DNA of 64,000 nucleotides from Bacteroidota bacterium (GCA_021324685.1 JAJPIQ010000008.1:47343-111342); one strand, 5' to 3'; shown: positions 8,279 to 53,776, counted from the stretch's first letter. A program made the numbers and translations. The notes: generated from the letters alone by a model not told the origin.

Positions 8279-8376
8279 TCCATCGCATTTTTTTATCACA
8301 TCTCGTGAGGGAGTTCAACCTGGCGCGAGTTCGAATATCGAACTCGCGCCAGGTTTTTAAAGCATGTTTTTAAGAA

Positions 8377-31794: not shown

Positions 31795-32001
31795 TGAACG
31801 GCCAACGTGCGCTCCAGCGCATGCGTTCAAGGGTATGCTCGATGATGTTCCCATCTACCAGGGCGCGCTTACTCCCCTGAAAATCGACTCGGAAAAGGTT
31901 GGTTAACTAATGGCGCGCGGGCGAGCGCATGCAAGGAGTACCGTGTTATTCCCTCGAACGCTGGGAACCAAGCCCATGGGAACTCGGTAAGTGTTCTGGC
32001 G

Positions 32002-38008: not shown

Positions 38009-38044
38009 AAGTTCCTAAAAATGTCATTCCTGCAATGCTTTTGA

Positions 38045-38071
38045 TGTCATTCCCGCGAATGCGGGAATCCA
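38045..38071. repeat. Hairpin repeat copy A (tgtcattcccgcgaatgcgggaatcca; stem ATTCCCGC/GCGGGAAT, loop GAAT)
   Basis: Perfect 8-bp stem with a 4-nt loop. One of four related copies bracketing the GIY-YIG gene. A degenerate half-copy (tgtcattcctgcaatgc) lies at 38022-38038. Confidence 0.7.
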
Positions 38072-38081
38072 TAGCTTTCAT

Positions 38082-38459
38082 TTAGTATGAAGGTCCATTT
38101 TCACTCGGCTTATGGATGCCCGCATTCGCGGGCATGACAGGATTTGTTTCGAAATACGGAAATTGATAATTATTTGTTGAAAGATCGACCCATTCTGGAT
38201 TTTTCTTCTCGATCAAATTTATTTTCCACTGACGATTCCACTTTTTTAATTGCTTTTCCCGAGTTATTGCCGCGTTAATATCTGAAAAAAATTCGAAGTA
38301 GACTAATCGATTAACGTCGTATTGCTTTGTGAAACCCTCGAAAGTGCCTTCTTTGTGTTGAGCCACACGTCGCTCCAGATCCTTGGTCACGCCGATATAG
38401 AGCGTTCCGTTACGCTGACTCGCCATAATGTACACATAGTAGTTATGATTCATCATCAT
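38082..38459 (-). CDS. GIY-YIG nuclease family protein (small, single-domain)
   Basis: Start MMMNHNYYVYIMASQRNGTLYIGVTKDLERRVAQHKEG (GIY...YIG motif) within ORF 38082..38621. The ORF's N- and C-terminal extensions are simply read-through of hairpin repeats C, D and B (e.g. IPASAGMT, MPANAGIH). The region is AT-rich relative to its flanks. Confidence 0.75.
   Translation of the reverse strand: MMMNHNYYVYIMASQRNGTLYIGVTKDLERRVAQHKEGTFEGFTKQYDVNRLVYFEFFSDINAAITREKQLKKWNRQWKINLIEKKNPEWVDLSTNNYQFPYFETNPVMPANAGIHKPSENGPSY
38112..38139. repeat. Hairpin repeat copy B (inverted orientation; stem ATGCCCGC/GCGGGCAT)
   Basis: tggatgcccgcattcgcgggcatgacagg. Relative to copy A it carries compensatory t>g / a>c changes that preserve the stem. 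Confidence 0.7.
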
Positions 38460-38467
38460 CAGACTTC

Positions 38468-38495
38468 TTGTCATTCCCGCGGATGCGGGAATCCA
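38468..38495. repeat. Hairpin repeat copy C (ttgtcattcccgcggatgcgggaatcca)
   Basis: Same orientation as copy A; loop variant GGAT. Confidence 0.7.
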
Positions 38496-38539
38496 GCGCT
38501 TTCCTGCGATTTGAACTTCGCGGTTGGCCGCAAAGAATA

Positions 38540-38567
38540 GATTCCCACATTCGCGGGAATGACATTC
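38540..38567. repeat. Hairpin repeat copy D (inverted; gattcccacattcgcgggaatgacattc)
   Basis: Reverse complement is gaatgtcattcccgcgaatgtgggaatc. The stem has one G-T wobble position. Confidence 0.65.
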
Positions 38568-38574
38568 AAAATGT

Positions 38575-38922
38575 TTATCCCGACTCCTCCTCCATGTGAT
38601 CGAGATACTTGCTCTTGGCAAGCGTCTTCAGATCGTCGAGATATTTATTGATGCGTTTGCGAACGGGATAGCCCGAGGCTTCGCGATAGTTCTTATCGGG
38701 AATGGTCGAGAACATATCGTCATCCTCGTGCTGGAAGGTGAAAATATCGGTCGAGCGCACGACCCACAGGTTCACCGTCTTCTTGCGGCGGCCGAACTGC
38801 TCTTTCGCGAACGCGAGCGCAAGTTCCGGGTCCGGCGCGTGAACGATTCCGACGAATTCGTGCGCCGCGCCGCGCTTGTCCTGATGGAAGACCGCGAACG
38901 GTTCCCAATGTTCGTTTTGCAT
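38575..38922 (-). CDS. paaB: 1,2-phenylacetyl-CoA epoxidase subunit B
   Basis: Start MQNEHWEPFAVFHQDKRGAAHEFVGIVHAPDPELALAFAKEQFGRR...NLWVV matches PaaB (WPLYEVF...HVGS.HA.D...AL..AR..Y.RR). The ORF-track N-terminal extension (38923-38991) lies in the repeated 62-bp element and is rejected. Confidence 0.8.
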   Translation of the reverse strand: MQNEHWEPFAVFHQDKRGAAHEFVGIVHAPDPELALAFAKEQFGRRKKTVNLWVVRSTDIFTFQHEDDDMFSTIPDKNYREASGYPVRKRINKYLDDLKTLAKSKYLDHMEEESG

Positions 38923-38982
38923 GAGGCCGCCCGAGGCCGGAGCATGCTCCAGATCGGCGCGGCGGATGCGGGGGTCGAGACT
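38919..38982. repeat. 62-64-bp direct repeat R2 (gcatgaggccgcccgaggccggagcatgctccagatcggcgcggcggatgcgggggtcgagact), containing the paaB start codon and a 12-bp perfect palindrome GGAGCATGCTCC
   Basis: Near-identical copy (3 mismatches) at 40148..40211. Palindrome at 38939-38950. Confidence 0.8.
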
Positions 38983-38993
38983 GGTGGTCATAA

Positions 38994-40151
38994 TTAAAAT
39001 TTGTAAACGTATTTTTCTGCTAATATAATTGAGTCATTGCTCCCTAGATAACTGCACGATAATGGGAGGTTATCTTCTCTCCATTCGTATGAAACAGCAT
39101 TCGTTAAACCTGGAAGGGAAATAAATTTACGTGTACGCTCGACAGGTCTGCCTTCTTCGTCATACACATATTGTATTATCTCCGTGTCCAATGGGTTCGA
39201 GCAAGGCAGAGGCGGGCAGTTTATACAACGTTCTCGTATAATTACCTTATTGAGCGAAAGGATGACATTACCATGGCTATCAAATCGATCTTCGCTACGA
39301 AGGCACGGTGCTGTCACATCCTTTAATAGTTGATAATGTGAGGTTCGAATGATATTACCATTTCTATCGAGAATAGTGCTATCTATATATAGAGGTTCTT
39401 GGTCATTGTATTGCAATCTTTGTGACGCAATAATTTCATTCCTGTTGTTAAAGTAATTAATAATGCGTTCCGAAAGTCGAAGATTGTTTACGTTGTTGCC
39501 GGTTTTATGCTGCCAATCAATTTCGCTGTCGATCCTTTCTGAAGGTCCCCAATACATTACCGATTTCGTACCCTGATAATCGACGGAACTCCAATTGGAG
39601 TTATCCGTGATTTGAGCGACTGTCGCAGTCTCCACTGAATTGTCCCGGTATTGAACGTATGATAATTCCCGACCCAAAGAATCATAATGGAAGATATCGG
39701 ACGAACCGGGATCTTTCTGAAAGTTACCGTATTCCCTTTTGATATTCCGTTTGTCGAATTTTATTTCTGTCGTTGCATTTAGTTCTCGATTAAAGTTTGT
39801 CGCAATAAGCGTATCACCCGAATAAGAGAACGTCCACGTTTCCGTATCGGCGACGGGAGAATATTTGGACGAGTCGAATACTGGAATCGTATCGTTTGGA
39901 TTGGTTGAATCGATACGATGCGGATAATTAAAGCTATAGCTAATACATGAGAACGATTTCAGATGATGACTACGAATCCATTGGAGCGCTGATGTATCGT
40001 CACACCAAGCAAGTTGATGCAAGTTAATTCCCGGTGAGGTGTGTTCCGGCCAGTCGGGGACAAATTGAGCGTATAGTTCCGTTCCCGTTAACAGCATAAA
40101 ACAAAACGAGAAGAATCCGAAAGCATATCCTTTCCAATGCCTAGTCTGCAT
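38994..40151 (-). CDS. Secreted YD-repeat (RHS-repeat-like) protein, paralog 2; low-GC
   Basis: Start MQTRHWKGYAFGFFSFCFMLLTGTELYAQ (signal peptide) within ORF 38994..40220. YD motifs HYDSLGRELSY, FDSHGNVIL, YVYDEEGRPVER; C-terminal ...VYKF. The first 6 codons (MQTRHW) mirror paaB's MQNEHW because the R repeat spans the start. Confidence 0.65.
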   Translation of the reverse strand: MQTRHWKGYAFGFFSFCFMLLTGTELYAQFVPDWPEHTSPGINLHQLAWCDDTSALQWIRSHHLKSFSCISYSFNYPHRIDSTNPNDTIPVFDSSKYSPVADTETWTFSYSGDTLIATNFNRELNATTEIKFDKRNIKREYGNFQKDPGSSDIFHYDSLGRELSYVQYRDNSVETATVAQITDNSNWSSVDYQGTKSVMYWGPSERIDSEIDWQHKTGNNVNNLRLSERIINYFNNRNEIIASQRLQYNDQEPLYIDSTILDRNGNIIRTSHYQLLKDVTAPCLRSEDRFDSHGNVILSLNKVIIRERCINCPPLPCSNPLDTEIIQYVYDEEGRPVERTRKFISLPGLTNAVSYEWREDNLPLSCSYLGSNDSIILAEKYVYKF

Positions 40152-40211
40152 AAGCCCGCCCGAGGCCGGAGCATGCTCCAGATCGGCGCGGCGAATGCGG
40201 GGGTCGAGACT
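40148..40211. repeat. Direct repeat R1, copy of R2 (gcataagcccgcccgaggccggagcatgctccagatcggcgcggcgaatgcgggggtcgagact)
   Basis: Lies between the two YD-repeat genes. Carries the ATG of the downstream YD paralog and the same 12-bp palindrome (40168-40179). Confidence 0.8.
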
Positions 40212-40229
40212 TTGTAACATGGTCGCTAT

Positions 40230-41249
40230 TCAAAATTTGTATACACATGTTGAATTTCCGTTATGATCTCTTATGGCCAGAAGACGATCATCATCTCCCC
40301 AAATGTATTCATTTCGTCCCCCGTCGCCCGTGCTCACTGTGACACGCCCAAATGAGTCATATTCATATGAATCACTAGTGGTATCAGGCTCAGCCCCCCA
40401 TAGATCGTAGCGTGTCTCGGTCGTGATAGAGCGAATACGATTGGCGTGCTCATCGAACAGTTTTTCCCCACAGAAATGAAGATTGTTGTCTTCGTCCTTA
40501 TCTGGATTATTCCAAAATCCATACGTGACAACCCGTTGCAAAATACCGGAAGGATAGTAGAAAAAACTATCGATCGATGTCGCTCCGCTGAATATCTCGT
40601 AAGAAAGCTGGAGCCGATTCGATACGTCGTAGAAATTGTGCGTTGCTGTAACAAGAATTGTATCTACGTTGCTTTGCTTGAGCTTTCCTTTCCGTTTCTT
40701 GGGTGTAAGGACCATTCTCTCGAAAGCGCTATCTACTCGTCCTCCCAAACCGAAATACTTAGTCTCAAGCCAATAGCCGTGTTGGATGGTAAGCACCTTG
40801 CCGATCTGTGCATATGACCATGTTTCAAGATTTGGCTTCTCGTCACTCCATCTCCGCGCTGAGTCTGCCAGCAAGACTTGTTCGCTTAACTGCCTCCCAA
40901 TTGAGTCGAAGGTTTTAATCCTTGTCAGACCGGATGAGTGCGTTTCGAGATAACAAAGCGTATCACGGCCATCGTACTTCTCTATCATTTCTTGATTCGG
41001 ATGTCCAATATTCGTAATACGGACAAGGGTATCTCCTGAGACTGAGAAGCCGTATTCCCAAATGGTATCTGGACGATTAGACACTACTACTCCAGCCATT
41101 TTGAGATGATGCGCTCTGATCCAAGCGAGTGTAAGCGGAGTCGGCGATTCCAAGTTCACACCTGGATCCGTACGAATATTGTACTGAGCGTTCGCATAAT
41201 TAGCGAACGTCAGTAACAATACCATCCCCATAAGCAATCGCGCGTTCAT
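40230..41249 (-). CDS. Secreted YD-repeat (RHS-repeat-like) protein, paralog 1; low-GC
   Basis: 339 aa. Signal peptide MNARLLMGMVLLLTFANYANAQ. Shared motif LAWIRAHHLKM (vs LQWIRSHHLKS in paralog 2). YEYDSFGRVTV YD repeat; C-terminal ...CVYKF. Confidence 0.65.
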   Translation of the reverse strand: MNARLLMGMVLLLTFANYANAQYNIRTDPGVNLESPTPLTLAWIRAHHLKMAGVVVSNRPDTIWEYGFSVSGDTLVRITNIGHPNQEMIEKYDGRDTLCYLETHSSGLTRIKTFDSIGRQLSEQVLLADSARRWSDEKPNLETWSYAQIGKVLTIQHGYWLETKYFGLGGRVDSAFERMVLTPKKRKGKLKQSNVDTILVTATHNFYDVSNRLQLSYEIFSGATSIDSFFYYPSGILQRVVTYGFWNNPDKDEDNNLHFCGEKLFDEHANRIRSITTETRYDLWGAEPDTTSDSYEYDSFGRVTVSTGDGGRNEYIWGDDDRLLAIRDHNGNSTCVYKF

Positions 41250-41261
41250 TGATTCGGATAA

Positions 41262-42263
41262 TTACGCATACGGCACCATCGTTTTCACGCCCGGTTTCAT
41301 CATTGCTTCGCGCACCCAGCGCCCATTCTCCTCGGCGTAGCGGCGGACGGCGAGGCGCTCCTTGTTGCAGGGGCCATCGCCATTGATGACGCGGAAGAAT
41401 TCATCCCAGTCGGGCTGGGTATATTCCCATTTGCCTTCAGCGTTTTTCTTGAGCGCAGGATCGGGAAGTGTAAGCCCCAGTTCCCAGATCTTCGGAACAT
41501 ATTGTTCGAGGAAGTCCTGCCGCATCTCTTCGTTCGACATCATCTTCACTTTCCAGCGCATGAGTTTTTCGGTGTGGACCGAGATCGTGTCCGGCGGACC
41601 GAAAAAGTGCATCATCGGCGGGAACCACCACCGGTTGAGCGCGTCCTGTACCATCGCGCGCTGCATCGGGGTTCCCACTGCGAGCGCGACGAACGCATCG
41701 TAGCCCTGCTTCAAATGGAATGATTCCTCATAGCAAATTCTCTCGAGCGCGCGGCAGTACGGGCCGTAGCTGCCCTTCGCATTGGCGAGCTGATTGACGA
41801 TCGCGCCGGCATCGACCAGAAACCCGATGACCGCAATATCGGCCCAGGTTTTCGCGGGATAGTTGAAAATATTGCTGTACTTCGATTTGCCGCTGATGAG
41901 ATCGTTGATCATCGCCTCACGCGATTTGCCGAGCGTTTCGGCGGCGCTATAGAGCAAGTGCCCGTGGCCAACCTCGTCCTGCACTTTCGCGATGAGTGCA
42001 AGTTTCCGTTTCAGCGTTGGTGCGCGAGTGATCCAGGTTCCCTCCGGCAGCGCGCCGATGATTTCGGAGTGAGCATGCTGCTCGATCATGCGCAGCACCT
42101 GGCGGCGGTATTCGGCGGGCATCCAGTCATCCGGCTCGATCTTTTCGCCGCGCGCAATGCGAGCTTCGAATTCCGCGAGTTTAACGGGATCTTCCTGTAC
42201 TTCCGGTTTGGAAGCTTTTCCATTGATTTTTGGATCTTCTTCGATCGAGGCGTTTCCGTACAT
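41262..42263 (-). CDS. paaA: 1,2-phenylacetyl-CoA epoxidase catalytic subunit A
   Basis: 333 aa. [50 protein letters not shown] is a di-iron PaaA sequence. Confidence 0.85.
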
Positions 42264-42268
42264 AGGTA

Positions 42269-42841
42269 TTAAATGGTGATTCCTTCAATCAGGATCGTGG
42301 TAATGAGCTCCGCAACCTGGTCGGATGAAAATTTGGTGTTGGGCCGATATGATTCGTACGTCCAGTTCGTGGCCGAAAGCAACGTCCGCGCCGCAATGTT
42401 CGGGTCGACGTTCTTGAATACGCCGGCTGAAATTCCTTCTTCGATCAGCTCACGAAAGATTCCCTCGTACCGGCGGCGCATGTGCCGAAAATCTTTAAGG
42501 AAGGGCTCCCGCATGTGCCGCCATTCATGCAGGAACACTCCCGAGGCATCGGAATTCGCGGCGATCACCCGCAGGTGCGCCCCGATCGCGGCGTGTAATC
42601 GTTCCGAGGGGCCCTCAACGGCCTGAATAGCGGACTCGATGCTGGTAAAAAATTCGTCCGCCATTCGAAAACAAATTTCCTGAAGGATCTCCTCTTTCGA
42701 ACCGACGTGATTATAAAGGCTTGCGGCCTCGATCCCAAGGGTTTCCGCGAGGTCCCGCATGGAGGTAGCGGTGTAGCCCCGTTCCCGAAAAAGCAGTTGT
42801 GCTTTTTCGCGGATTTGGTCTTTTCGAGCAATCGTCCTCAC
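42269..42841 (-). CDS. TetR/AcrR family transcriptional regulator, candidate paa repressor
   Basis: 190 aa. N-terminal [46 protein letters not shown]. Immediately upstream of paaA, divergent from mraZ. Confidence 0.8.
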
Positions 42842-43025
42842 TAAAAAACTAACGCTCGTTAGTTAATGGATGGTTCGCCGGGCGAATACTTTGCTGAAAG
42901 AATGCGCTTTTTTTTCACTTTTATGCATTTTTTTTCTTAGAAAGTGAGCGACTTTTGCGAATTTGTAGTTATATTTGCAACAAAGTGGGTAAATGTGGGA
43001 GACATGAAACCAAAGGTGCTCATAG

Positions 43026-43487
43026 ATGTCATCTTTTAAAGGCAGCGATACTTACGTCGTCGATGCAAAAGGGCGGGTAAGCATCCCGTCCAAGATGCGA
43101 AAAAATATCGAACCTGAGGCGCATTTGACCTTTATCGTCACGCGCGGTTTGGAAAAATGCCTCTATGCCTACCCCCTCGACGAGTGGCAGCGCCTGGAAG
43201 ATTCCATTCGGCTGCTCTCTCCGGCCAACGAGAAGGACCGATTTTTTGCTCGGACGCTCATGCAATGGAGCGAAGAAGTACAACTGGATTCACAATTTCG
43301 ACTCCTCATTCCAAAATCGCTTCTCGATTTCGCCGAAATTTCCAAAGAAGTTTTTTTTATCGGTGTGCTCGATCATATCGAACTCTGGAAACCCGAGCAT
43401 TTTAAAAAATACCTGGAATCCAGAAAAGAGACCTACGAGAAAGTGGTCGAACACGTCATGGGAAAAACGCAGGGAACGGATTCGTAA
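43026..43487 (+). CDS. mraZ: Division/cell wall cluster transcriptional regulator MraZ
   Basis: 153 aa. Duplicated MraZ halves (DAKGRVSIPSKMRK ... DSQFRLLIPKSLLDFA). First gene of the dcw cluster. Confidence 0.85.
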   Translation: MSSFKGSDTYVVDAKGRVSIPSKMRKNIEPEAHLTFIVTRGLEKCLYAYPLDEWQRLEDSIRLLSPANEKDRFFARTLMQWSEEVQLDSQFRLLIPKSLLDFAEISKEVFFIGVLDHIELWKPEHFKKYLESRKETYEKVVEHVMGKTQGTDS

Positions 43488-43511
43488 TCGGCGTTTGGAC
43501 GCGATCGTTAA

Positions 43512-44462
43512 TTGAAAACGAATGCTGTATATCATGTTCCGGTGCTGCTTCGGGAAGCGCTGGACTATCTTGAGGTACACGCCGGCGGGACCTATATCGA
43601 TGCGACCGTAGGCGGCGGCGGGTATGCCGAGGCGTTGTTGGAGCAGGGAGCGCGCGTGTTCGGATTCGATACCGATCCGGCGGCATGGGAATTTAGTCAT
43701 CGCCGGCTCGCAATCTTCGGGGATCGATTTACACTCGTGAAAGAGAATTTTTCACGGATGGAAACATCGCTCCTGGCACGTGGGATCGAGCACGGAGCGA
43801 TCGATGGCGTCGTGTTCGACCTCGGGGTAAGCAGCCATCAGCTCGATACGACGAGTGTCGGCCTTAGCTATCGCATCGATGCGCCGCTCGATATGCGGCT
43901 CGATCCGCGGCTGCCGGTTTCAGCGCGAGAGGTCGTCGCGGCGTATGACGAATCGAAACTTGCACGAGTGTTCCGGGACTATGGCGAGGAACCATATTCG
44001 AAGCAGATTGCTCGACACATTGCGCGAGCACGCGAAGCGCAGCCGATCGGGACAACAATGGAACTGGCGGAGGCCGTGACGCGCGGCATGCGGGAAGATA
44101 AAAAGAATGAAACGCTTTCTCGCATTTTTCAGGCGCTGCGCATCGAGGTCAACCATGAACTGGAGAATTTAAAAACCGCCCTCGATGCCTCGCGTTCGAT
44201 GCTGAAGGAAGGTGGACGTTTGGTCGTCGTTTCCTATCACTCGCTCGAGGACCGCATCGTAAAAGATTTTTTTAAGCGTGAAAGCGAGCCGGAATTTACA
44301 CCCGGCTCGATCGGAGCGCTCCGAGAACGGATCGATCGGTCGCGGGCAGGCTTACGCATCCTGACCAAAAAGCCGGTCGTGCCGAGTGCAGCAGAATTAG
44401 AGCAAAACCCACGCGCGCGCAGCGCAAAGCTGCGTGCCGCAGAACGATTAGCCAAACGATAA
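43512..44462 (+). CDS. rsmH: 16S rRNA (cytosine1402-N4)-methyltransferase RsmH (MraW)
   Basis: 316 aa, TTG start. HVPVLLREALDYL...YIDATVGGGGYAEALL...DLGVSSHQLD motifs. Confidence 0.9.
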   Translation: MKTNAVYHVPVLLREALDYLEVHAGGTYIDATVGGGGYAEALLEQGARVFGFDTDPAAWEFSHRRLAIFGDRFTLVKENFSRMETSLLARGIEHGAIDGVVFDLGVSSHQLDTTSVGLSYRIDAPLDMRLDPRLPVSAREVVAAYDESKLARVFRDYGEEPYSKQIARHIARAREAQPIGTTMELAEAVTRGMREDKKNETLSRIFQALRIEVNHELENLKTALDASRSMLKEGGRLVVVSYHSLEDRIVKDFFKRESEPEFTPGSIGALRERIDRSRAGLRILTKKPVVPSAAELEQNPRARSAKLRAAERLAKR

Positions 44463-44466
44463 GACG

Positions 44467-44895
44467 ATGACAACAATCGCCTTTGCGCCAAAAGCCCCGA
44501 CGTCCGCCATGCCGGAACGGGAACTCCTGGGTATGCGACGAACGCCCGACCGCTGGAGTGAAACGGTTCCCGCCGAACCGGTGGCACCGCCGAGGCCTTC
44601 GCCGCCGACGGAACTCGAAAAAGCCGTTCGGCGGATGCCGACGCTCTATGTGATCGCCTTCTTTGGCATCGTCGTCCTCTCGGCCGTGCTCATCATTTGG
44701 AACACGCTGCAGGTCAATCTTTTGACGGCGCAGGAAACAAAGCTGGATACGCAAATCGCGCAAACGGAGCAGCGCCTCATTCGCCTGCGCGCGGAAGAAA
44801 TGCAACTTTCGGCTCCGGAACGAATTCGAGCGCTCGCTCAAACGAATTTGGGAATGGTCGAAGCGCAAAGCCAGGACATCATCACGGTAAAATAA
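44467..44895 (+). CDS. ftsL: Cell division protein FtsL-like (single TM + coiled coil), with a long N-terminal extension
   Basis: 142 aa. TM LYVIAFFGIVVLSAVLIIW followed by coiled-coil LLTAQETKLDTQIAQTEQRLIRLRAEEMQL. Canonical position between rsmH and ftsI. Confidence 0.6.
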   Translation: MTTIAFAPKAPTSAMPERELLGMRRTPDRWSETVPAEPVAPPRPSPPTELEKAVRRMPTLYVIAFFGIVVLSAVLIIWNTLQVNLLTAQETKLDTQIAQTEQRLIRLRAEEMQLSAPERIRALAQTNLGMVEAQSQDIITVK

Positions 44896-44902
44896 ACATA
44901 TT

Positions 44903-47353
44903 GTGACATATCGGGACCAGGACGAATTGCCGTTCGAAGGTGTCGCAATCCGGCGTGAAGATCGCGTCGGTGCGGCTCCCGGTCGTCCTGTGACTTCCGG
45001 TGGTTCTGTAGCTTCCGGTCGTCCGGCGGTCCCTATTCGTCCGGCAGTGTCGGCTCGTCCGGCCGGACGCCCATCGCCACAGGTTCCGCAAAGAACACCG
45101 TCTGTTGCTACGCAGGACGAACCAGAAGACTCCGAGGAAAAAACTTCCTGGCACGAAAAAATGGTGGAGCGCTTTTTCGCTCCACCGCCGCCAGTCGATC
45201 CGTTAAAGAAGAACGGTCGTTTGTATACCGCTCTTGCGCTGTTCCTCTTATGCTTTATACTCGTCGGCGCAAAACTCTTCAAACTTCAGGTCTTAGATCA
45301 CGCCGCTTTTTCTGCCGAGGCTGCCGAGCAGTATAAAATGGAGATGCCGATCGAACCCGAGCGCGGACTCATCCGCGATCGGAATGGGATCATCCTGGCC
45401 GCCAACGCTTTTGTCGTCAAATATGCGGTCGATCCGAAAGCGATCCAGCATCCCGACCGGCTGGCCGCGATCTTCTCCGAGACCTTCGGAAAGCCGGCAA
45501 AATATTACAACGACTTATTTCACGATACGTCGCGGCGCTATATCGTGATCGAAAAAGAAGTGCCGATGGAGGTCGCGGCGCGACTCGACTCCATCAAGGA
45601 TCGCGGCCTGATGAGGGAACTCGATTCAAGGCGAAATTATGCCTTCAGCGATCGTGCGGCCCATGTCCTCGGGTTTGCGAGCAAAGACGGTCGCGGCCTT
45701 GCCGGGATCGAACTGTTTGCAAACCGCGATCTGGCCGGCCGCGAAGGATTCCAGATCATGCAGCGCGACGGGCGCGGGGGACTTCGACCCGATGTGGACT
45801 ACGATAAAGTCGCGGCCGTCAACGGCGAAAACATTACGCTCACGATCGATGAAGCCATTCAGGCCGCGACCGAATCGGCCCTGAAGGACGGCGTCGAAAA
45901 AGCCGAAGCGGAAGCCGGTATCGCGATCGTCATGCGGCCCTCCACCGGAGAGATCCTCGCGCTGGCGAACGTTCCAGATTTCGATCCCAACCATTTCAGC
46001 GCGGCTACGAACGATATGTTGCGCAATCGGGCGATTACGGACGCGTATGAGCCCGGGTCGACGATCAAAGTCCTCGTCGCGGCCGCGGCGTTGGAAGATG
46101 GGGCCTGGAAACCGGATGACAAGATCGATGCCGAGCATGGGCACTGGAACCCCGAGCCCGGCGTGCGGATCACGGACACGCATCCCTATGGCATTCTGAC
46201 CTTTCAGCAGGCACTCGAAAAGTCGAGTAATATTTCGTTTGCAAAAGTTTCCGACAAACTCGATCGGCGGCGCTTCTATAAATATCTGCGTGATTTCGGG
46301 ATCGGAAACTTTACCGGGATCGATCTTCCCGGCGAAGTCAAAGGGGTGCTGCACACGCCGGCGCAGTGGCAGGAGAATTCCAAACGCTACATGGCGTTCG
46401 GATATGAACTCACGGCGACCCCGATCCAAATGGCAACGGCGTATGCGACCGTTGCGAATATGGGCCTTATGATGAAGCCCTACATCGTGGCAAAACGCGA
46501 AGGGCCAAACGGAACGGAAGTCACGACGCCGCAGGAAATTCGGAGGGTCGTGAGCGAGCAGACCTGCCGCACGCTCATACACATGATGGAAGGCGTCGTC
46601 GATTCCGGAACGGGAACGCTTGTAAAAATTCCCGGCGTACGCATTGCGGGAAAGACGGGGACCGCGCAGCAGTTGGTGGGCGGCCATTGGTCGAAAGAAC
46701 ATTATACCTCGAGCTTTACCGGATTTTTTCCGGCCGAGAAACCCGAATACCTCATCAGTGTGATCCTTCGCTCGCCGAGGAACGGCTATTATGGCGGTGT
46801 CGTGAGCGGACCGATCTTTCGCGAGATCGCGATGGACATCATGGAAATGACGGGTACGCTGCCGCCGGAAGCGCGAACGCAGCCGAAGCCCACACAGCCA
46901 CTGGTCACCGAAGGGGTGGTCGATATCGATGGTATTCCGGTCACGCCGCGCGATCCGGATACGCGGCCCATGTGGGATGTCCGGGGGCTCACGGCCGAGC
47001 AGGGGCGCTCGGTGCTCGCAAGTCAGGGTTTCATCGTGCTCGCGTCGAAATCGAAAGACGACCGCGAGATCATTGCCGATGTACAAAAGTGTGGAGGGGA
47101 TACCGTTCGGTTTGCGCTTGTCACAGACGCATCCTCCGAGCCCGGTCAGAATAATGGTTCCGCGAATGCAACGGTCACACCCGATCTCATGGGGATGCCA
47201 ATGACACGCGCTATTAAACTGGCAGCGGCGGACGGATTTCGTGTCCGGACGAGCGGCTCCGGAGCGGTTGAAAAACAATTCCCTACGGCCGGCGCGACAC
47301 TGAGCACGGCCTATGGAAGCCCGACGCTAACGCTGTTTGGGGAAGAACAATGA
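44903..47353 (+). CDS. ftsI: Peptidoglycan D,D-transpeptidase FtsI / class B PBP, with an unusually long Pro-rich N-terminal cytoplasmic extension and two C-terminal PASTA-like domains
   Basis: 816 aa. TM LYTALALFLLCFILVGAKLF. Transpeptidase motifs STIK (EPGSTIKVLVAAAALE), SSN and KTGT. C-terminal tandem ~65-aa domains resemble PASTA. Confidence 0.85.
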   Translation: MTYRDQDELPFEGVAIRREDRVGAAPGRPVTSGGSVASGRPAVPIRPAVSARPAGRPSPQVPQRTPSVATQDEPEDSEEKTSWHEKMVERFFAPPPPVDPLKKNGRLYTALALFLLCFILVGAKLFKLQVLDHAAFSAEAAEQYKMEMPIEPERGLIRDRNGIILAANAFVVKYAVDPKAIQHPDRLAAIFSETFGKPAKYYNDLFHDTSRRYIVIEKEVPMEVAARLDSIKDRGLMRELDSRRNYAFSDRAAHVLGFASKDGRGLAGIELFANRDLAGREGFQIMQRDGRGGLRPDVDYDKVAAVNGENITLTIDEAIQAATESALKDGVEKAEAEAGIAIVMRPSTGEILALANVPDFDPNHFSAATNDMLRNRAITDAYEPGSTIKVLVAAAALEDGAWKPDDKIDAEHGHWNPEPGVRITDTHPYGILTFQQALEKSSNISFAKVSDKLDRRRFYKYLRDFGIGNFTGIDLPGEVKGVLHTPAQWQENSKRYMAFGYELTATPIQMATAYATVANMGLMMKPYIVAKREGPNGTEVTTPQEIRRVVSEQTCRTLIHMMEGVVDSGTGTLVKIPGVRIAGKTGTAQQLVGGHWSKEHYTSSFTGFFPAEKPEYLISVILRSPRNGYYGGVVSGPIFREIAMDIMEMTGTLPPEARTQPKPTQPLVTEGVVDIDGIPVTPRDPDTRPMWDVRGLTAEQGRSVLASQGFIVLASKSKDDREIIADVQKCGGDTVRFALVTDASSEPGQNNGSANATVTPDLMGMPMTRAIKLAAADGFRVRTSGSGAVEKQFPTAGATLSTAYGSPTLTLFGEEQ

Positions 47354-47469
47354 CCGAAAATGAATTATGAATGATGAATGACGGACCGAAGGTGTTCCTT
47401 CATGGTCATCATTGATATTTCTCATGTTCATTGTAATCACTTCAAAGTTAAAGCGGCGTTCGTTGAAAA

Positions 47470-48996
47470 ATGAAGTTTAGTGAGCAAATACCCGCTCTCC
47501 GGGGAGCGGGGCAGGACTGGCCAGACGAGATCGGCCTTCTCGACGTGTTCGGGGAGGCCGATCTCTCGAGGCCACAATACGATTCGCGGAAAATAAGGTC
47601 CGGCGATGCATTCTTCGCGATTAAAGGATTCCAGTCAGACGGTCATGGCTATATCCCACAGGCGATAGCGAATGGCGCGCGAACGATCGTACTCGAAGAG
47701 AGCGAAGCGTTTACCCGCGAAGATGCCGAGCGCGCGAATGTGGCAAGGCTCGTAGTAAAAAATTCGCGGACGGCACTTGCCGTCGCTTCCGAAGCCGCCT
47801 TCGGAAATCCGAGCTCGAAGCTGAGGATGATCGGGGTGACCGGGACGAATGGGAAAACGACGGTGACCACGCTGTTGCAGGAGTTACTACGCTCGAGCGG
47901 CGAGAAGGTCGGCCTCATTGGAACGATTGCGAACCGAATCGGGGCGGAAGCACTCCCCGCTTCCCACACGACTCCCGAATCGCGAGAACTTTCGGAACTC
48001 TTGAGCAGGATGGTCTCGGAGGGCGTAACGACGTGCGTCATGGAAGTAAGTTCTCACGCGCTTGCCCTGGAACGCGTTGCCGCACTCGATTTCGATATTG
48101 CGGTGTTTACGAACCTCACGCAGGACCATCTCGACTTTCATCGTACGATGGAAGCCTACTTTGCAGCCAAACAAAAATTATTTAATGGACTGAAAGACAC
48201 GGCGATCGCCGTCACCAACGCGGACGATCCCTTTGGTTTTGCGATGGTCGCCAATACCCTCGCGAATGTCCATTCGTATGGAATTAAAAATGAAGGCCTG
48301 CCGAACGCCGACCTTGTGGCATCGGGAATCCATTTAACGCCCGCCGGAGCAGAATTCGAGATCGGGAAACGATACTCCGAAGAACGTTCCCATTTTCGTT
48401 CGCCGCTGTTAGGGACATTCAACGTTCAAAATGTTTTAGCGGCCATTAGCGCACTCTATTTTGGAGTCGAAGGCTATTCGCTTGACGTGCTTTCGAATAA
48501 AGTCAGAAACATCTCTGCTCCTCGCGGCCGGCTGGACCGCATCCCGTTGAAGAACGGTGCGATTGCGGTCATCGATTATGCCCACACGCCCGATGCGCTT
48601 CGGAATATCCTCGAAACGCTGAAGAGTCTCCCTCATAAAAGGCTTCTTACCGTTTTCGGCTGCGGAGGGGATCGAGATCACGGCAAACGACCGCAAATGG
48701 GCGAAATAGCGGTAAATTTATCCGATTTTGTCATCATTACCAGCGATAATCCCCGGTCTGAAGACCCGAGTACTATAATAGAGGATATTCTGGCAGGGAT
48801 TCCAAAGAATATGCGGAGTAAGGTCGGGCTTGAGCCTGATCGCAAAAACGCGATCGAACTTGCGCTTTCCAGAGCGAATGACGGCGATATGATACTTATT
48901 GCCGGGAAGGGGCATGAAAATTACCAGATTTTTGGCTCCGAACGGCGCCATTTCGACGATCGCGAGGAAGTGCTCCGTTTTAATAATAGCCACTAA
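47470..48996 (+). CDS. murE: UDP-N-acetylmuramoyl-L-alanyl-D-glutamate--2,6-diaminopimelate ligase
   Basis: 508 aa. Mur ligase motif GVTGTNGKTTVTTL, DHLDFH, and a C-terminal domain. Confidence 0.9.
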   Translation: MKFSEQIPALRGAGQDWPDEIGLLDVFGEADLSRPQYDSRKIRSGDAFFAIKGFQSDGHGYIPQAIANGARTIVLEESEAFTREDAERANVARLVVKNSRTALAVASEAAFGNPSSKLRMIGVTGTNGKTTVTTLLQELLRSSGEKVGLIGTIANRIGAEALPASHTTPESRELSELLSRMVSEGVTTCVMEVSSHALALERVAALDFDIAVFTNLTQDHLDFHRTMEAYFAAKQKLFNGLKDTAIAVTNADDPFGFAMVANTLANVHSYGIKNEGLPNADLVASGIHLTPAGAEFEIGKRYSEERSHFRSPLLGTFNVQNVLAAISALYFGVEGYSLDVLSNKVRNISAPRGRLDRIPLKNGAIAVIDYAHTPDALRNILETLKSLPHKRLLTVFGCGGDRDHGKRPQMGEIAVNLSDFVIITSDNPRSEDPSTIIEDILAGIPKNMRSKVGLEPDRKNAIELALSRANDGDMILIAGKGHENYQIFGSERRHFDDREEVLRFNNSH

Positions 48997-49110
48997 AATA
49001 AAGGTTCTTCAGGGATTGCTCCCGGGCGTGGGCACTGTTACATGCTCGTTCTGCTCCTTCTTGTGCGGACCCGCGGAAGAGCTTTCGATAACGAATTTTT
49101 TTGACTTGAC

Positions 49111-50529
49111 TTGAATATTACCGTTCAGGACCTCATGACTTTGGCTCACAGCCATGAAATCGGCGTCGAGCAGCTTGGGCGTCTGCGAACCTTTCGCGAT
49201 ATCTCGACCGATTCGCGGACGCTAAAACGCGATGACCTTTTCGTGGCGCTCAGTGGTCCGAATTTCGATGGGCATCAATATCTGTCCCAGGTCGCGAAGG
49301 AAGGGGCCGCTGCGGCGGTCGTGAGCGAACGGTGGTTTGCAATGCAAAAATCGAAAGCTCATCCATTGCCGATCTTTGTTGTCAAAAGTCCTATTCACAC
49401 TCTTGGCGAGTTGGCAAGAGTGTATCGAAAGAAGTTCAATATTCCTGTGATCGCAATTGCAGGATCGAATGGAAAAACGACAACGAAAGAACTTATTGCG
49501 CATGTGTTGTCGGGCACGATGGGAGTTTTGAAGACAGAAGCAAATTTCAACAATCAGGTTGGCGTGCCCCACATGTTATTCCAACTTCGGGACGGACACG
49601 AGGTCGCGGTGCTCGAGATCGGGACCAACCATCCCGGGGAGATCGCATGGCTTTGCGAAATTGCAGAACCGACTCACGTGCTGATCACAAACATTGGGCG
49701 TGAGCACCTTGAATTTTTCAAGGACCTGAAAGGCGTCGCGAAAGAAGAAAAAGCGGCGTTCGACTACGCGCTCGAGCACCATGGGTTTGCATTTGTCAAT
49801 ACCGACGATCCGTTTCTGGAACCGGCGGCAAATAAATTCGGGGACCGTGCTGTGACCTATGGCCAGGGACGTGCCGATCGCAACCGGTTTGTTCATGCCT
49901 ACAAAGTTGGATACTCCAAAGATGGACGTATGGAGCTTCGGGTTGCGTGTGAAGACAAGTCGTTTCGAATTCGAACGCACCTTATTGCCGATTACACACC
50001 GAATCTTATCGCGTCGGCCGTCGCCGTGGGTCTGCACTTTAAAATGCGGCGCGCGGAGATCAAATCGCAGCTCGAAATTTTTCGGCCACACTCCAAACGG
50101 CTTGAAATTGTTCACATCGATGGCTTCACGGTGCTGAACGATGCGTACAATGCGAACCCCGATTCGATGGAATCGGCACTCCGGACATTGAAAGAATTTC
50201 CTGCGGAGGGCAGAAAATTTGCTGTGTTGGGAGATATGCTGGAATTGGGAACGACCTCCTCTCGAGAACATCGGGCCATCGGACTCATAGCGGCGAAATT
50301 CCGACTTGCGAGAGTGTTTTTTACCGGCAAGGATATGAAACTTGCCTCGAAAGCCTATAGCCTGGCATCCGGAAAATCGAACGGTGCCGCGAAGCCATCG
50401 TATTTCTCTAAAAAGAGCGATCTTGTAACTTCACTTCGAGAAGTGCTCCGTCCGGGCGATGCGGTCCTGATCAAAGGATCGCGCGGCATGAAGATGGAAG
50501 AAGTGATCGATCTCCTGCAAAAGGGATAA
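49111..50529 (+). CDS. murF: UDP-N-acetylmuramoyl-tripeptide--D-alanyl-D-alanine ligase
   Basis: 472 aa. AIAGSNGKTTTKELIAHVL and Mur ligase central and C-terminal domains. Confidence 0.9.
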   Translation: MNITVQDLMTLAHSHEIGVEQLGRLRTFRDISTDSRTLKRDDLFVALSGPNFDGHQYLSQVAKEGAAAAVVSERWFAMQKSKAHPLPIFVVKSPIHTLGELARVYRKKFNIPVIAIAGSNGKTTTKELIAHVLSGTMGVLKTEANFNNQVGVPHMLFQLRDGHEVAVLEIGTNHPGEIAWLCEIAEPTHVLITNIGREHLEFFKDLKGVAKEEKAAFDYALEHHGFAFVNTDDPFLEPAANKFGDRAVTYGQGRADRNRFVHAYKVGYSKDGRMELRVACEDKSFRIRTHLIADYTPNLIASAVAVGLHFKMRRAEIKSQLEIFRPHSKRLEIVHIDGFTVLNDAYNANPDSMESALRTLKEFPAEGRKFAVLGDMLELGTTSSREHRAIGLIAAKFRLARVFFTGKDMKLASKAYSLASGKSNGAAKPSYFSKKSDLVTSLREVLRPGDAVLIKGSRGMKMEEVIDLLQKG

Positions 50530-50572
50530 TCGTGGAGTAGAAAAAAGTTAACGCCTGCTCTTAATTTTCGAC

Positions 50573-51700
50573 GTGTTTTATTATCTATTCAACTGGATCA
50601 ATCGCGCGTTCAGCCCACCGGGAGGCGATTTATTTCGCTACCTGACGGTTCGCAGTGCGCTGGCCGCTATTTCGGCGCTCGCTCTTAGCTTATGGAGCGG
50701 TCCGCGAGTTATTCAACGCTTGCGCGAGCTTCAGATCGGCGAGCAGGGGAAAGTGGAAGCTCCGAAGCAGCACCTGGCAAAAGCCGGAACGCCGACGATG
50801 GGGGGCGTCATTATTCTCATTGCGGTCCTTATTCCGACCCTCCTCTGGGCCGACCTCGGGAATTTATTCATTGTCCTTATCTTGCTTGCGACCCTCTTGT
50901 TGGGAGGGGTCGGATTTCTGGACGATTACCTGAAAGTCGTTAAGAAAAAAAGAAAAGGGCTCATTGGGCGCTATAAAATTCTGGGACAAATATTGGTCGG
51001 ATTAGTCATTGCGCTGACGATCTATTTTTCGCCGACGCTCTTCCGTTATGCGGGGGTCGATATTCGGACGGCAACAACGGTCCCGTTTTTTAAAGACCTG
51101 GTGTTCGAGTTCGGTCCGGTGCTCTATGTTCTGTTCGTCATTTTCGTGATCACGGCAACTTCCAATGCCGTAAATCTTACAGACGGGTTAGATGGCCTGA
51201 GCGCTGGAACGGTCGCAATCGCCTTCATACCGATCGGGGCGATCGCTTATTTCTCCGGGAACCTGCAGCTCAGCGATTATCTGAATATTCCGTATTTAAA
51301 AGGAGCGGGTGAACTCACCGTGTTTTGCTCGGCCCTGGTCGGCGGAGCGCTTGGATTTTTATGGTACAATGCCCATCCTGCGGAAGTGTTTATGGGCGAT
51401 ACCGGCTCGCTCGCGCTCGGCGGCGCGATGGGAACGATGATGGTCCTGTGCAAAAAAGAATTCGTGCTCCCGATCGTGGGCGGGATCTTTTTCCTGGAGT
51501 CGATCTCGGTGATCTTACAGACCGGTTATTTTAAATTTTCTCGAAAGATGTATGGGGAAGGCCGGCGTATTTTCCGGATGGCGCCGTTGCACCACCATTT
51601 CGAACTCTGTGGCTGGGCCGAGTCGAAGATCGTAACACGCGCATATATTGCCGCGATCATCCTCGCGATCCTCGCGCTGACCACCTTTAAAGTCCGCTAA
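50573..51700 (+). CDS. mraY: Phospho-N-acetylmuramoyl-pentapeptide-transferase
   Basis: 375 aa polytopic. NAVNLTDGLDGL and FMGDTGSLALGG motifs. Confidence 0.9.
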   Translation: MFYYLFNWINRAFSPPGGDLFRYLTVRSALAAISALALSLWSGPRVIQRLRELQIGEQGKVEAPKQHLAKAGTPTMGGVIILIAVLIPTLLWADLGNLFIVLILLATLLLGGVGFLDDYLKVVKKKRKGLIGRYKILGQILVGLVIALTIYFSPTLFRYAGVDIRTATTVPFFKDLVFEFGPVLYVLFVIFVITATSNAVNLTDGLDGLSAGTVAIAFIPIGAIAYFSGNLQLSDYLNIPYLKGAGELTVFCSALVGGALGFLWYNAHPAEVFMGDTGSLALGGAMGTMMVLCKKEFVLPIVGGIFFLESISVILQTGYFKFSRKMYGEGRRIFRMAPLHHHFELCGWAESKIVTRAYIAAIILAILALTTFKVR

Positions 51701-51740
51701 GGACCGCAGGAGCGCATCGCCATGCGCCCGACCGAACGCT

Positions 51741-53111
51741 ATGCAAGTCAGGGGTAAACGCTTTTCTATCTTAGGTGCCGGAAAGTCCGGCCTTGCGGTT
51801 GCGCGTTTGCTAAAGACGCGAAGGGCTAAAGTCTTCATCTCCGAAAAAGGAAAGCAATCCAAGTTCGAAGGCGCGGCAAAGGAATTAGAAGAGATCGGTG
51901 TCGAATATGAATTCGGCGATAACACGCACCGCGTTTTGGAGGGCGATTACGTCGTCATAAGCCCCGGCGTTCCGCTCGATGCCCCGATCCTAAAGCTTGC
52001 CCGCGAGAAAGGAATTAAAATTTTAAGTGAGATCGAGGTCGCCTTCGACGAGTGCGAAGCGCCCGTCGTTGCAATCACCGGGACGAATGGAAAAACGACG
52101 ACGACAACCCTCGTCGGAGAGATATTTAAGAAAGCAGGATGGGACACCTTCGTTGCCGGCAATATCGGGCTGGCATTTTCTCAAATTGTCGATGAGGCAA
52201 ATTCGGCGCATCGTTCCGAAAATTCAAAGACGGTTGTCGTGCTCGAAGTCTCGAGCTTTCAGCTCGATGCGATCGATGAATTTCGTCCGAAGGTATCGGC
52301 ACTGCTCAATATCACGCCCGACCATTTGGACCGCTACAAAAATTACGAGGCGTACATTCAGGCGAAGTACCGCATCGTCGAGAACCAGAAGGGCCACGAT
52401 ATTTTCGTCTATAATCACGATGACGAGAACGTCCGCAATTGCGCCGACACGGTGAATATCCGCACGCTTGGGTTTTCCCTGAACGAAGAGACAAAGCAGG
52501 GAGCTTTTCTTTCGGGAGACGATGTCGTCCTTCGCATCGGTCGCGAAAAAGAGACCTTGATAAACCGGAATGAAATTGGGATCCCCGGACCGCACAACCT
52601 CATGAACGCCATGGCCGCCGCGCTGATGACGCGTGCCATGGGGGTCGAATTCGAAGCGATCCGCGAAACGTTGCGGGCGTTCAAAGGCGTCGAGCATCGC
52701 ATCGAATTCGTGCGGGAGCTAAATGGCGTGAAATATTACAACGACTCGAAAGCGACCAACGTCGATTCGGTCTATTATGCGCTGGGAAGTTTCAAGGAGC
52801 CGATCGTGATCATTCTTGGCGGCAAAGACAAGGGCAACGATTATTCGCAGATCGCGGAGCTTGTGAAGGAACATGTGAAAGCAATAGTGACCGTCGGCAA
52901 AGGCGCGGAGAAAGTCGAGAAGTTTTTCAAGGAGATGAAGCCGATCTATTCCGCCGGAATGTCCATGGACGAAGCCGTGCGTTTAGCCAAAGAGGCCGCC
53001 GCGCCGGGAGATGTGGTACTTCTTTCGCCCGCCTGCGCCAGCTTCGATATGTTCGATAATTACGAGCATCGGGGGAAGGTGTTTAAGGAATTGGTGTGCA
53101 GCCTGAAATAG
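51741..53111 (+). CDS. murD: UDP-N-acetylmuramoylalanine--D-glutamate ligase
   Basis: 456 aa. ILGAGKSGLAVARLL and ITGTNGKTTTTTLVGEI motifs. Confidence 0.9.
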   Translation: MQVRGKRFSILGAGKSGLAVARLLKTRRAKVFISEKGKQSKFEGAAKELEEIGVEYEFGDNTHRVLEGDYVVISPGVPLDAPILKLAREKGIKILSEIEVAFDECEAPVVAITGTNGKTTTTTLVGEIFKKAGWDTFVAGNIGLAFSQIVDEANSAHRSENSKTVVVLEVSSFQLDAIDEFRPKVSALLNITPDHLDRYKNYEAYIQAKYRIVENQKGHDIFVYNHDDENVRNCADTVNIRTLGFSLNEETKQGAFLSGDDVVLRIGREKETLINRNEIGIPGPHNLMNAMAAALMTRAMGVEFEAIRETLRAFKGVEHRIEFVRELNGVKYYNDSKATNVDSVYYALGSFKEPIVIILGGKDKGNDYSQIAELVKEHVKAIVTVGKGAEKVEKFFKEMKPIYSAGMSMDEAVRLAKEAAAPGDVVLLSPACASFDMFDNYEHRGKVFKELVCSLK

Positions 53112-53112
53112 T

Positions 53113-53511
53113 ATGAAGCAACCGTTACTTGTATTTTTGTACGTTTTGATTTTCGTTGCAATCTGTTTCGGAGTTTACTTCCTTATTGCGTTTATCACGG
53201 GTAAATTTATTCGAAGGAAGGCTATTCGCATATTGGTCGCAGTTCCACTTAGTATTCTTATTTGTGTGCTCGGAATGTGGTTTTTGGGGACCGAGCCGGA
53301 AAATAGCGTGACTGCTCAAAAATATATTTCTGGAAGTCCTGCTCAAGTCGATAGCATTGTGGGGAAAACTCGAAGTGAGACACGTAGCTTGTTAGGAGAC
53401 CCTACAGATTCTGTAGAGAATGAGTATTATTATGGTATAGCTCGTCACGAAGGAATTTCCGTCGAGTTTGAAAACGGAAAGGTTTACAAAGTTTATCATA
53501 CTGGAAGGTAA
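53113..53511 (+). CDS. Small hypothetical membrane protein inserted between murD and ftsW (low-GC)
   Basis: 132 aa. Two TM helices (LLVFLYVLIFVAICFGVYFLIAFI; ILVAVPLSILICVLGMWFLG). Start is 1 nt after the murD stop. AT-rich relative to the dcw genes. Confidence 0.5.
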   Translation: MKQPLLVFLYVLIFVAICFGVYFLIAFITGKFIRRKAIRILVAVPLSILICVLGMWFLGTEPENSVTAQKYISGSPAQVDSIVGKTRSETRSLLGDPTDSVENEYYYGIARHEGISVEFENGKVYKVYHTGR

Positions 53512-53567
53512 ACACAACTGTTAAAAAATATCGCCCTTTTAGGGCATTGGAATTTTAATGCACTGCT

Positions 53568-53725
53568 AACCCAGGGCTTCGTCCGCATTCGCGGACTGCG
53601 CCCTGGGCTGCGAGTACACCGTGCCTACGGCACTAAGGAATTGCGGCAATGGGAATTTATCAAAAATTAGCCACGAAGTGGCGAAGTACTCGCAGCCCAG
53701 GGTGAAGCGAAGCGCAACCCTGGGT
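53568..53725. repeat. Cluster of nested hairpins / inverted repeats in the dcw insertion (X1 53568-53617 and inverted X2 53686-53725 share ends acccaggg...ccctgggctgcgagtac; inner hairpin gtccgcATTCgcggac)
   Basis: The inner hairpin at 53581-53596 shares the CCGC-GAAT/ATTC-GCGG core with the GIY-YIG-associated hairpins. Additional palindromes gtgcctacggcac (53621-53633) and ccacgaagtgg (53671-53681). Confidence 0.6.
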
Positions 53726-53776
53726 AAAATGACGAATAGATTTTTTATGGCCCTGTAAGGGCGATGTTAAACCGAA

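Follow-up and report, generated by a model that had tools for sequence, protein, structure and literature searches.

In Neisseria, about half of the dRS3 repeat copies are contained in a longer, oriented motif, NTS (CGTCATTCCCGCGMAVGCGGGAATCYRG), and NTS-like sequences, the Ssn-related motifs (SRMs), flank ssnA, a gene for a single-domain GIY-YIG protein of 94 amino acids, across bacterial phyla (Chenal et al., Nat Commun 2025; PMC11893778). Binding of the motif by SsnA and three homologues requires single-stranded DNA, and the cut is made a few nucleotides upstream; the RNA form is not bound. By mutagenesis, cleavage and binding depend critically on the three bases that precede the palindrome on its 5' side and on the C that directly follows it, and the loop is dispensable. 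The NTS-ssnA-NTS layout has been likened to an insertion sequence and to transposases associated with repetitive extragenic palindromic (REP) sequences, with mobility of the element raised only as a hypothesis (PMC11893778). We analysed a stretch of 64,000 nt from a Bacteroidota bacterium (GCA_021324685.1, JAJPIQ010000008.1:47343-111342), referred to as the window, with positions counted from its first nucleotide. The window is part of a metagenomic contig of 326,709 nt. We consider it highly probable (roughly 0.85) that positions 38021-38570 are an ssn-SRM unit, with a head-to-head doublet of cognate motifs on each side of the gene, in the spacer between paaB and paaC, and that the two other low-GC insertions of the window, a pair of YD-like genes between paaA and paaB and the murD-lprI spacer of the dcw cluster, are unrelated to it. 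An earlier note on this DNA had assigned all three insertions to one hairpin family and suggested an undescribed small mobile element or a palindrome-targeting nuclease. The nuclease guess was right for the GIY-YIG insertion, with its putative Ssn family gene and flanking cognate hairpins. The ssn-SRM pairing is already published, and the unifying claim over-extends a known system to two unrelated insertions.

The only real family here consists of four Ssn-related motifs, the hairpins that surround the GIY-YIG gene (38043-38566). Their consensus is yGTC-ATTCCCGC-N4-GCGGGAAT-CCA, and the cognate hairpin motifs of the unit are 28-32 nt long. Each side of the gene carries two head-to-head copies of the form TGTC-ATTCCCGC-GAAT-GCGGGAAT-CCAT, the inverted arms being 37 and 46 nt apart. 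Copy A (TGTCATTCCCGCGAATGCGGGAATCCAT; plus strand, 38043-38074, hairpin 38049-38068, ATTCCCGC GAAT GCGGGAAT) forms a doublet with copy B (TGTCATGCCCGCGAATGCGGGCAT CCAT; minus strand, 38110-38141, hairpin 38116-38135, ATGCCCGC ATTC GCGGGCAT). Copy C (TGTCATTCCCGCGGATGCGGGAATCCAG; plus strand, 38467-38498, hairpin 38473-38492, loop GGAT) is an inverted repeat of copy D (TGTCATTCCCGCGAATGTGGGAATCTAT; minus strand, 38535-38566, hairpin 38541-38560), the outer motif on the paaB side, and forms with it a doublet with a REPIN-like fold. The stems of hairpins A, B and C measure 8 bp and their loops 4 nt; the stem of D has one G-T mismatch and that of B a compensatory change from T-A to G-C. The outer copies D and A are 34-nt inverted repeats and 88% complementary. 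As single-stranded DNA, each doublet is predicted to fold into one long hairpin (A-B, -33.4 kcal/mol, z-score -8.7; C-D, -30.3 kcal/mol, z-score -5.7). A truncated half-SRM between copy A and the start of paaC (TGTCATTCCTGC; plus strand, 38023-38036) is probably a decayed copy.

A covariance model, R1, was built from 78 oriented SRMs of other genomes and used, without speed filters, to search the entire window. Copy A scored 46.1 bits (E 2.6e-11), B 42.5 bits (E 3.2e-10), C 40.9 bits (E 9.7e-10) and D 36.2 bits (E 2.5e-8). The published SRM search sequence, HGTCWYN(0-2)YYVSBRHN(0-5)WNVSBRGN(0-2)RNCYNB, is matched by copies A and B, with a chance expectation of 0.33 per window. Under these alignment statistics the resemblance between the hairpins of the GIY-YIG insertion holds, at 36-46 bits, and the other sequences that the earlier note had placed in the same family, the dcw hairpin and the repeats at the YD genes, drop out. 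The window contains only four good SRM copies. A candidate decayed doublet consists of a minus-strand copy at 32011-32042 (model R1, 15 bits, E 0.06) and a degenerate partner near 31944-31975; the stretch 31944-32042 folds no better than shuffled sequence (z-score -0.68) and overlaps a long open reading frame (ORF), and the SRM at 32011-32042 is uncertain.

The association of gene and motif was followed in 80 loci with an ssn homologue from many phyla, among them Ignavibacteriota, Bacteroidota, Omnitrophota, Patescibacteria, Proteobacteria, Planctomycetota, Chloroflexota and Cyanobacteria. Most of these loci have the 20-nt palindrome ATTCCCGC-N4-GCGGGAAT on both sides of the gene, mostly in plus orientation upstream and in minus orientation downstream. 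The upstream loop is usually GNNR and the downstream loop usually its reverse complement. In these loci, the density of matches to the published search sequence is 36 times as high up to 300 nt from the gene as in the remainder. Among adjacent (+,-) SRM pairs, 32 bracket ssn and 20 are tight doublets; none surrounds cargo other than ssn.

This tracking of the gene across phyla, with its 36-fold enrichment, bears on a more ordinary explanation, by which the hairpins are operon punctuation (intrinsic terminators, mRNA-stabilizing REP-like elements or a small RNA) and functionally unlinked to the GIY-YIG gene. The hairpins do lie in intergenic operon spacers, a weak T-rich tail comes after copy D, and the A-B doublet (38027-38157) has a sub-threshold match to the Rfam family WsnRNA46, Wolbachia sRNA 46 (38.3 bits at a gathering score of 65.3, E 6e-5). 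However, a T-run is missing at copies A, B and C, and only D is flagged as a terminator, weakly; the region has no excess of terminator-like sites (30 versus 21.7 +/- 5.8 expected); the published Ssn enzymes ignore the RNA form of the motif; and empty orthologous spacers indicate that the operon works without the hairpins. We regard operon punctuation as extremely improbable. As to WsnRNA46, Wolbachia is among the SRM-rich genera of the Ssn paper (PMC11893778), which together with the sub-threshold match means that the family itself may rest on an SRM doublet.

The gene between the doublets, ssn (minus strand, 38082-38462), is predicted to encode a single-domain GIY-YIG nuclease with a core of about 105 residues (38142-38462). 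The Pfam GIY-YIG domain is found at residues 7-82 (E 2.2e-20), with no second domain, and more than 7,900 homologues were retrieved at E <= 1e-10. Residues Y9, Y20 and E67 are invariant in a 24-sequence alignment, and their spacings (11 and 58 residues) are those of the catalytic residues Y6, Y17 and E64 of Neisseria meningitidis SsnA. Judged by its sequence, the gene thus encodes an Ssn-type nuclease. NCBIfam has no model for the Ssn family, and the nearest solved structures in the PDB are UPF0213 proteins, which are distant.

Beyond the core, the ORF runs across SRM B and stops at 38082. Database homologues likewise carry tails that are translated hairpins, of the types MDSRxRGND (e.g. MDSRFRGND), VIPAxAGIQ (e.g. 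VIPAKAGIQ), GFPxSRE (e.g. GFPLSRE) and SFPRRRES. As gene callers run ssn ORFs through SRMs, thousands of deposited proteins carry such spurious tails, which is a warning for annotation.

The locus resembles the Neisseria Ssn/NTS system (dRS3/NIME) in several respects. The protein is a single-domain GIY-YIG protein of about 100 residues with equal catalytic spacing, the palindrome ATTCCCGC-N4-GCGGGAAT has an oriented GTC flank on its 5' side and a C on its 3' side, motifs are present on both sides of the gene, and in relatives extra motifs occur around other genes. In contrast to Neisseria, the host is a Kapaibacterium-like member of the Bacteroidota, the loop is GAAT or GGAT and thus outside the Neisseria GMAV consensus, the motifs form two tight inverted doublets instead of single flanking copies, and the four good copies in 64 kb give no sign of a hundreds-fold expansion. 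If the published biochemistry of the four Ssn homologues applies here, an SRM would fold into its 8-bp hairpin when the DNA is single-stranded, the nuclease would bind this stem along with its oriented 5' GTC and 3' C flanks, and it would nick a few nucleotides 5' of the motif; double-stranded DNA and RNA would be spared.

A second described system with related traits is REPIN/RAYT, together with IS200/IS605. As in these, the short palindromes of the ssn unit are arranged in inverted doublets, fold into a long hairpin, are intergenic, and are clustered at a single-copy gene for a nuclease of single-stranded hairpin DNA. Unlike REPIN/RAYT, the enzyme is of GIY-YIG type and not an HUH/Y1 transposase, and the unit has no REP heads of the GTAG/CGTC type. 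The ssn-SRM system works like a REPIN system and is not a member of REPIN/RAYT, as the RAYT gene is absent. A literature search for a link of GIY-YIG to REP sequences or REPIN found nothing relevant, and we know of no strand-transfer activity of Ssn.

The paa genes are encoded on the minus strand in the order TetR gene, paaA (41262-42263), two YD/RHS-like ORFs of low GC content (40230-41249 and, encoding 408 residues, 38994-40220), paaB (38575-38991), GIY-YIG ORF, paaC and paaD. Ten loci with this gene order and paaB were compared with the window; in eight of the 10, PaaB is 82-89% identical to that of the window. The nearest named relative with matching gene order is a Candidatus Kapaibacterium metagenome-assembled genome (MAG), GCA_044449045.1. 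In the window, the paaB-paaC spacer holds ssn and four SRMs. This spacer is near-empty (from a few to about 30 nt) in L082, L083, L085, L087, L088, L089 and L218, the latter a Kapaibacterium MAG. It contains ssn (83% identical) with three SRMs in L086, a different hairpin doublet in L084 and an Arr-ms gene, for a rifampin ADP-ribosyltransferase, in L219. At the place of the half-SRM of the window, L086 has a similar remnant.

The paaA-paaB spacer, which is not covered in L083, L086 and L089, is just as variable. It is empty in L084 and contains two YD-like genes in the window and in L087, one in L082, and an unknown gene plus a D12 methyltransferase gene in L088. In L085 it holds a toxin-antitoxin pair (VapBC-like), a duplicated paaA 3' end and the GmrSD restriction gene in the arrangement SRM-GmrSD-SRM; in L219, the same toxin-antitoxin pair and GmrSD are present with no SRM. 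In L218 the arrangement is SRM(+)-ORF128-SRM(-)-ssn-SRM(+)-ORF208-SRM(-). Both spacers are insertion hot spots, and these lie inside a conserved catabolic operon, with cargo that includes defence, resistance and secreted-protein genes. The duplicated paaA 3' end of L085 (3927-4004) comprises 26 codons (88% identical) and is located after the toxin-antitoxin pair and before GmrSD with its flanking SRMs; it suggests that the block was gained by recombination through paaA homology.

At paaB-paaC, the ssn-SRM unit is thus absent from nine of the 10 relatives and present in one (L086), and L218 carries it at paaA-paaB. This variation in presence and position among relatives suggests that the unit is, or recently was, mobile. 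The earlier suggestion of an undescribed small mobile element agrees with this polymorphism as far as mobility is concerned; the element is not undescribed, as family, motif and SRM-ssn-SRM layout are all in the published account (PMC11893778). A bolder version would make ssn-SRM an active mobile element that hops between the fixed paa spacers, its SRM doublets being non-autonomous REPIN-like derivatives that are moved by the GIY-YIG nuclease, not by a Y1 transposase, and its hairpins bracketing new cargo (GmrSD, ORF128, ORF208). This we consider possible and, on balance, unlikely. If it were true, the filled, empty and shifted sites would make Ssn mobility testable. What remains of value beyond the published system is comparative: close relatives with the unit at one site, at the neighbouring site or at none are the type of evidence that is needed to decide between selfish, mobile Ssn elements and domesticated ones.

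We also considered that an SRM-cargo-SRM block moves as a unit. In L219, the same spacer contains GmrSD but no SRMs; convincing SRMs are also lacking at GmrSD homologues (61-63% identity) of other lineages, L221-L223; and the 80 ssn loci contain no cargo-bracketing pairs. As none of these tests was supportive, such a unit is not the main explanation.

Minimal mobile elements, or recombination hot spots between conserved genes, have been described in Neisseria. Similarly, the fixed spacers paaA-paaB, paaB-paaC and murD-lprI hold differing cargo among relatives, and short duplicated ends of flanking genes are found. Unlike in Neisseria, the spacers of the window lie inside operons.

The second insertion, the YD-like pair in the paaA-paaB hot spot, is associated with a duplicated gene end and not with a hairpin. 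Repeat R1 (minus strand, 38902-38982) is the 5' coding end of paaB and does not form a hairpin; repeat R2 (minus strand, 40131-40211) is its duplicate, fused to the start of the 408-residue YD-like ORF. They form an 81-nt direct repeat with 88% identity and, being copies of each other, count as one independent event. Related 10-mers had been reported in R1 and R2 as a sign of the hairpin family. They are present, as the reverse complement of the paaB codons for Asp-Pro-Arg-Ile-Arg, and are kept in all eight paaB orthologues checked, including that of the insert-free L084; by chance, 1.04 occurrences of CGRATGCGGG are expected per window. Neither the covariance model nor the published SRM search sequence matched the two repeat segments, and the YD-gene junctions consist of 2-12 nt of spacer with no hairpin.

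The paaB-derived start of the 408-residue ORF recurs in L087, where both copies have the variants specific to L087 in common. The YD proteins of the window and L087 are only 25-31% identical, and the two YD-like ORFs of the window are weak paralogues. The simplest origin would be a tandem duplication in which the junction joined about codon 30 of paaB with the YD gene, and later gene conversion. For this 408-residue ORF, Met24 is the probable start: it precedes a typical signal peptide (RHWKGYAFGFFSFCFMLLTGTELYAQ), and codons 1-23 are the paaB copy.

A comparable duplication is found in the dcw cluster, where murD (plus strand, 51741-53111) is followed by an ORF for an unknown protein of 132 residues (ORF132), a spacer of 265 nt, an LprI-domain ORF (plus strand, 53777-54370) and, directly downstream of the latter, ftsW. 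This gene map and that of the paa operon confirm the layout of operons and inserts given in the earlier note, and all of the hairpins, repeats, 10-mers and inverted pairs that it listed are present at their positions. The low-GC inserts have a G+C content of 0.41-0.49, compared with about 0.56 in the rest of the window. The N-terminus of the LprI-domain ORF is encoded by a duplicate of the 5' end of ftsW (MKPKRTADLSLFLTVTGLLL; plus strand, 53776-53837, partner 54366-54427), with 97% identity over 62 nt. Every relative recovered has an LprI gene upstream of ftsW that opens with about the first 20 codons of ftsW (59-79% protein identity), and the ftsW-derived N-terminus is kept in L093, L095, L096 and L097. 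The LprI gene with this N-terminus is therefore an old, conserved feature of the clade. Within a genome, the two copies of the ftsW 5' end are identical in 58 of 60 nt in the window and likewise in L096; between genomes, the values are 51-55 of 60 nt for orthologous ftsW copies and 42-53 for lprI copies. Both copies in a genome share its own synonymous variants, which points to concerted evolution by gene conversion. By these comparisons, the 5'-end duplications of downstream genes that had been noticed at paaB and ftsW are real, old and independent of the hairpins.

The murD-lprI spacer (53525-53775) itself is built of a different repeat. It is a composite of two full, inverted copies and two partial copies, and the fold of the whole spacer has a z-score of -8.1. 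Arm X1 (plus strand, 53570-53634) has a helix P1 (CCCAGGGC/GCCCTGGG), a linker and a helix P2 (GTGCC-TAC-GGCAC); arm X2 (minus strand, 53670-53724) is the inverted second copy, with TTGCGCTTCGCTTCA as its P1 loop. The sequence CCCTGGGCTGCGAGTAC is present on both strands, and the partial copies are GCCCTTTTAGGGC (53533-53545) and GCCCTGTAAGGGC (53750-53762). Region 53570-53634 matches the Rfam family Acido-Lenti-1 (RF01687) with 32.2 bits at a gathering score of 37 (E 4.8e-4); at the gathering threshold, RF01687 has no match anywhere in the window. At this E-value the resemblance to Acido-Lenti-1 is real, and membership is not established. The dcw arm agrees with the Acido-Lenti-1 RNA (Weinberg et al. 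2010) in the presence and order of its two helices and linker. It differs by its sub-threshold score, a 22-nt apical insertion in P1, another host phylum, and the occurrence as an inverted pair plus partial copies, an arrangement closer to that of a DNA repeat than to that of an RNA gene.

The canonical form of the repeat is abundant in IMG/VR contigs, especially in sample 3300045988. A scan of viral contigs by strand-specific pattern matches gave 96 copies of the CCCAGGGC-loop-GCCCTGGGCT core, about 50 of which have a P1 loop of 3-4 nt followed by a linker and a hairpin of the GCCC-TTTC-AGGGC type. A further murD-lprI spacer, in L096 (2360-2577), contains a different long inverted repeat (GCGCCAGCGGCGCGGCCTGT...ACAGGCCGCGCCGCTGGCGC). 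Depending on the genome, this spacer thus attracts palindromic elements that are unrelated to one another.

The dcw inner hairpin, GTCCGC ATTC GCGGAC (53581-53596), which is nested in the inverted pair 53596-53636/53667-53707, is the apical insertion in P1 (22 nt by direct count, 20 nt in the Rfam alignment). It shares with the SRMs the exact 12-mer CCGCGAATGCGG, found at three places in the window: 38053 (plus), 38120 (minus) and 53583 (minus). The third exact occurrence has a chance expectation of 0.07 per window, which rises to 1.85 with one mismatch allowed. Taken by itself, the low value for the exact 12-mer is suggestive. It agrees with the proposal that a single palindromic family and a nuclease or recombinase that reads it would direct or mark each of the three insertions, and so does the bracketing of other paaA-paaB genes by SRMs in relatives (GmrSD in L085; ORF128 and ORF208 in L218). 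The shared core, however, does not survive as a family relationship. Model R1 gives the dcw hairpin 8.3 bits (E about 6) in a local match to the inner 12 positions only (model positions 11-22). The published SRM search sequence does not match this hairpin, which has neither the GTC nor the C flank that cleavage and binding require; by direct reading, about one of 20 flank positions equals the SRM consensus. The core is missing from arm X2 and from all 96 viral-contig copies, and a BLAST search with the dcw spacer against the 80 ssn loci yielded only chance matches of 14-18 nt. The coding nature of the R1/R2 10-mer, the hairpin-free YD junctions, the SRM-free GmrSD in the same spacer of L219 and the lack of (+,-) pairs around non-ssn cargo in the 80 loci all add to this. 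The claim of one family for every insertion therefore fails on the evidence of the dcw flanks and core and of the 10-mer, and we consider a common system for all three very unlikely.

A narrower form of the same idea concerns the dcw hairpin only. It could be a fragment of a true SRM, copied into the apical loop of the Acido-Lenti-1-like repeat by template switching between hairpins or by repair induced by Ssn. The 12 identical positions (12/12) belong to a 22-nt insertion that is absent from other members of the repeat family, and the chance expectation is low. But outside the core the identity drops abruptly to about 1/20, and the shared part comprises the inner stem and the loop, the latter being the most variable part of the SRM family and dispensable for cleavage. 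A second example was not found among the sequences compared, and we hold this origin to be highly improbable.

Several observations weigh against the interpretation that we prefer, an ssn-SRM unit at 38021-38570 with no relation to the two other insertions. Copies C and D are each one position short of the published SRM search sequence. Two-sided changes were seen at seven of the eight pairs of the SRM stem, with variants compensated, but the high percentage of pairing is circular because covariation was counted on hairpins preselected as perfect. The assignment of the gene to the Ssn family (cd10448-type GIY-YIG) draws on architecture, catalytic spacing and motif association. The chance expectation of 0.07 for the dcw 12-mer would be lower still if only the insert regions were counted, and a cryptic but real link to the dcw spacer is just conceivable. 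Comparison with the empty sites yielded neither a recognizable target-site duplication nor a precise excision scar, so that loss by deletion instead of gain by insertion is possible.

The longest hairpin of the window is none of those described above. It is a perfect palindrome with an 18-bp stem, AACCTGGCGCGAGTTCGA-ATA-TCGAACTCGCGCCAGGTT, located at 8317-8355, and bears no relation to the SRMs.

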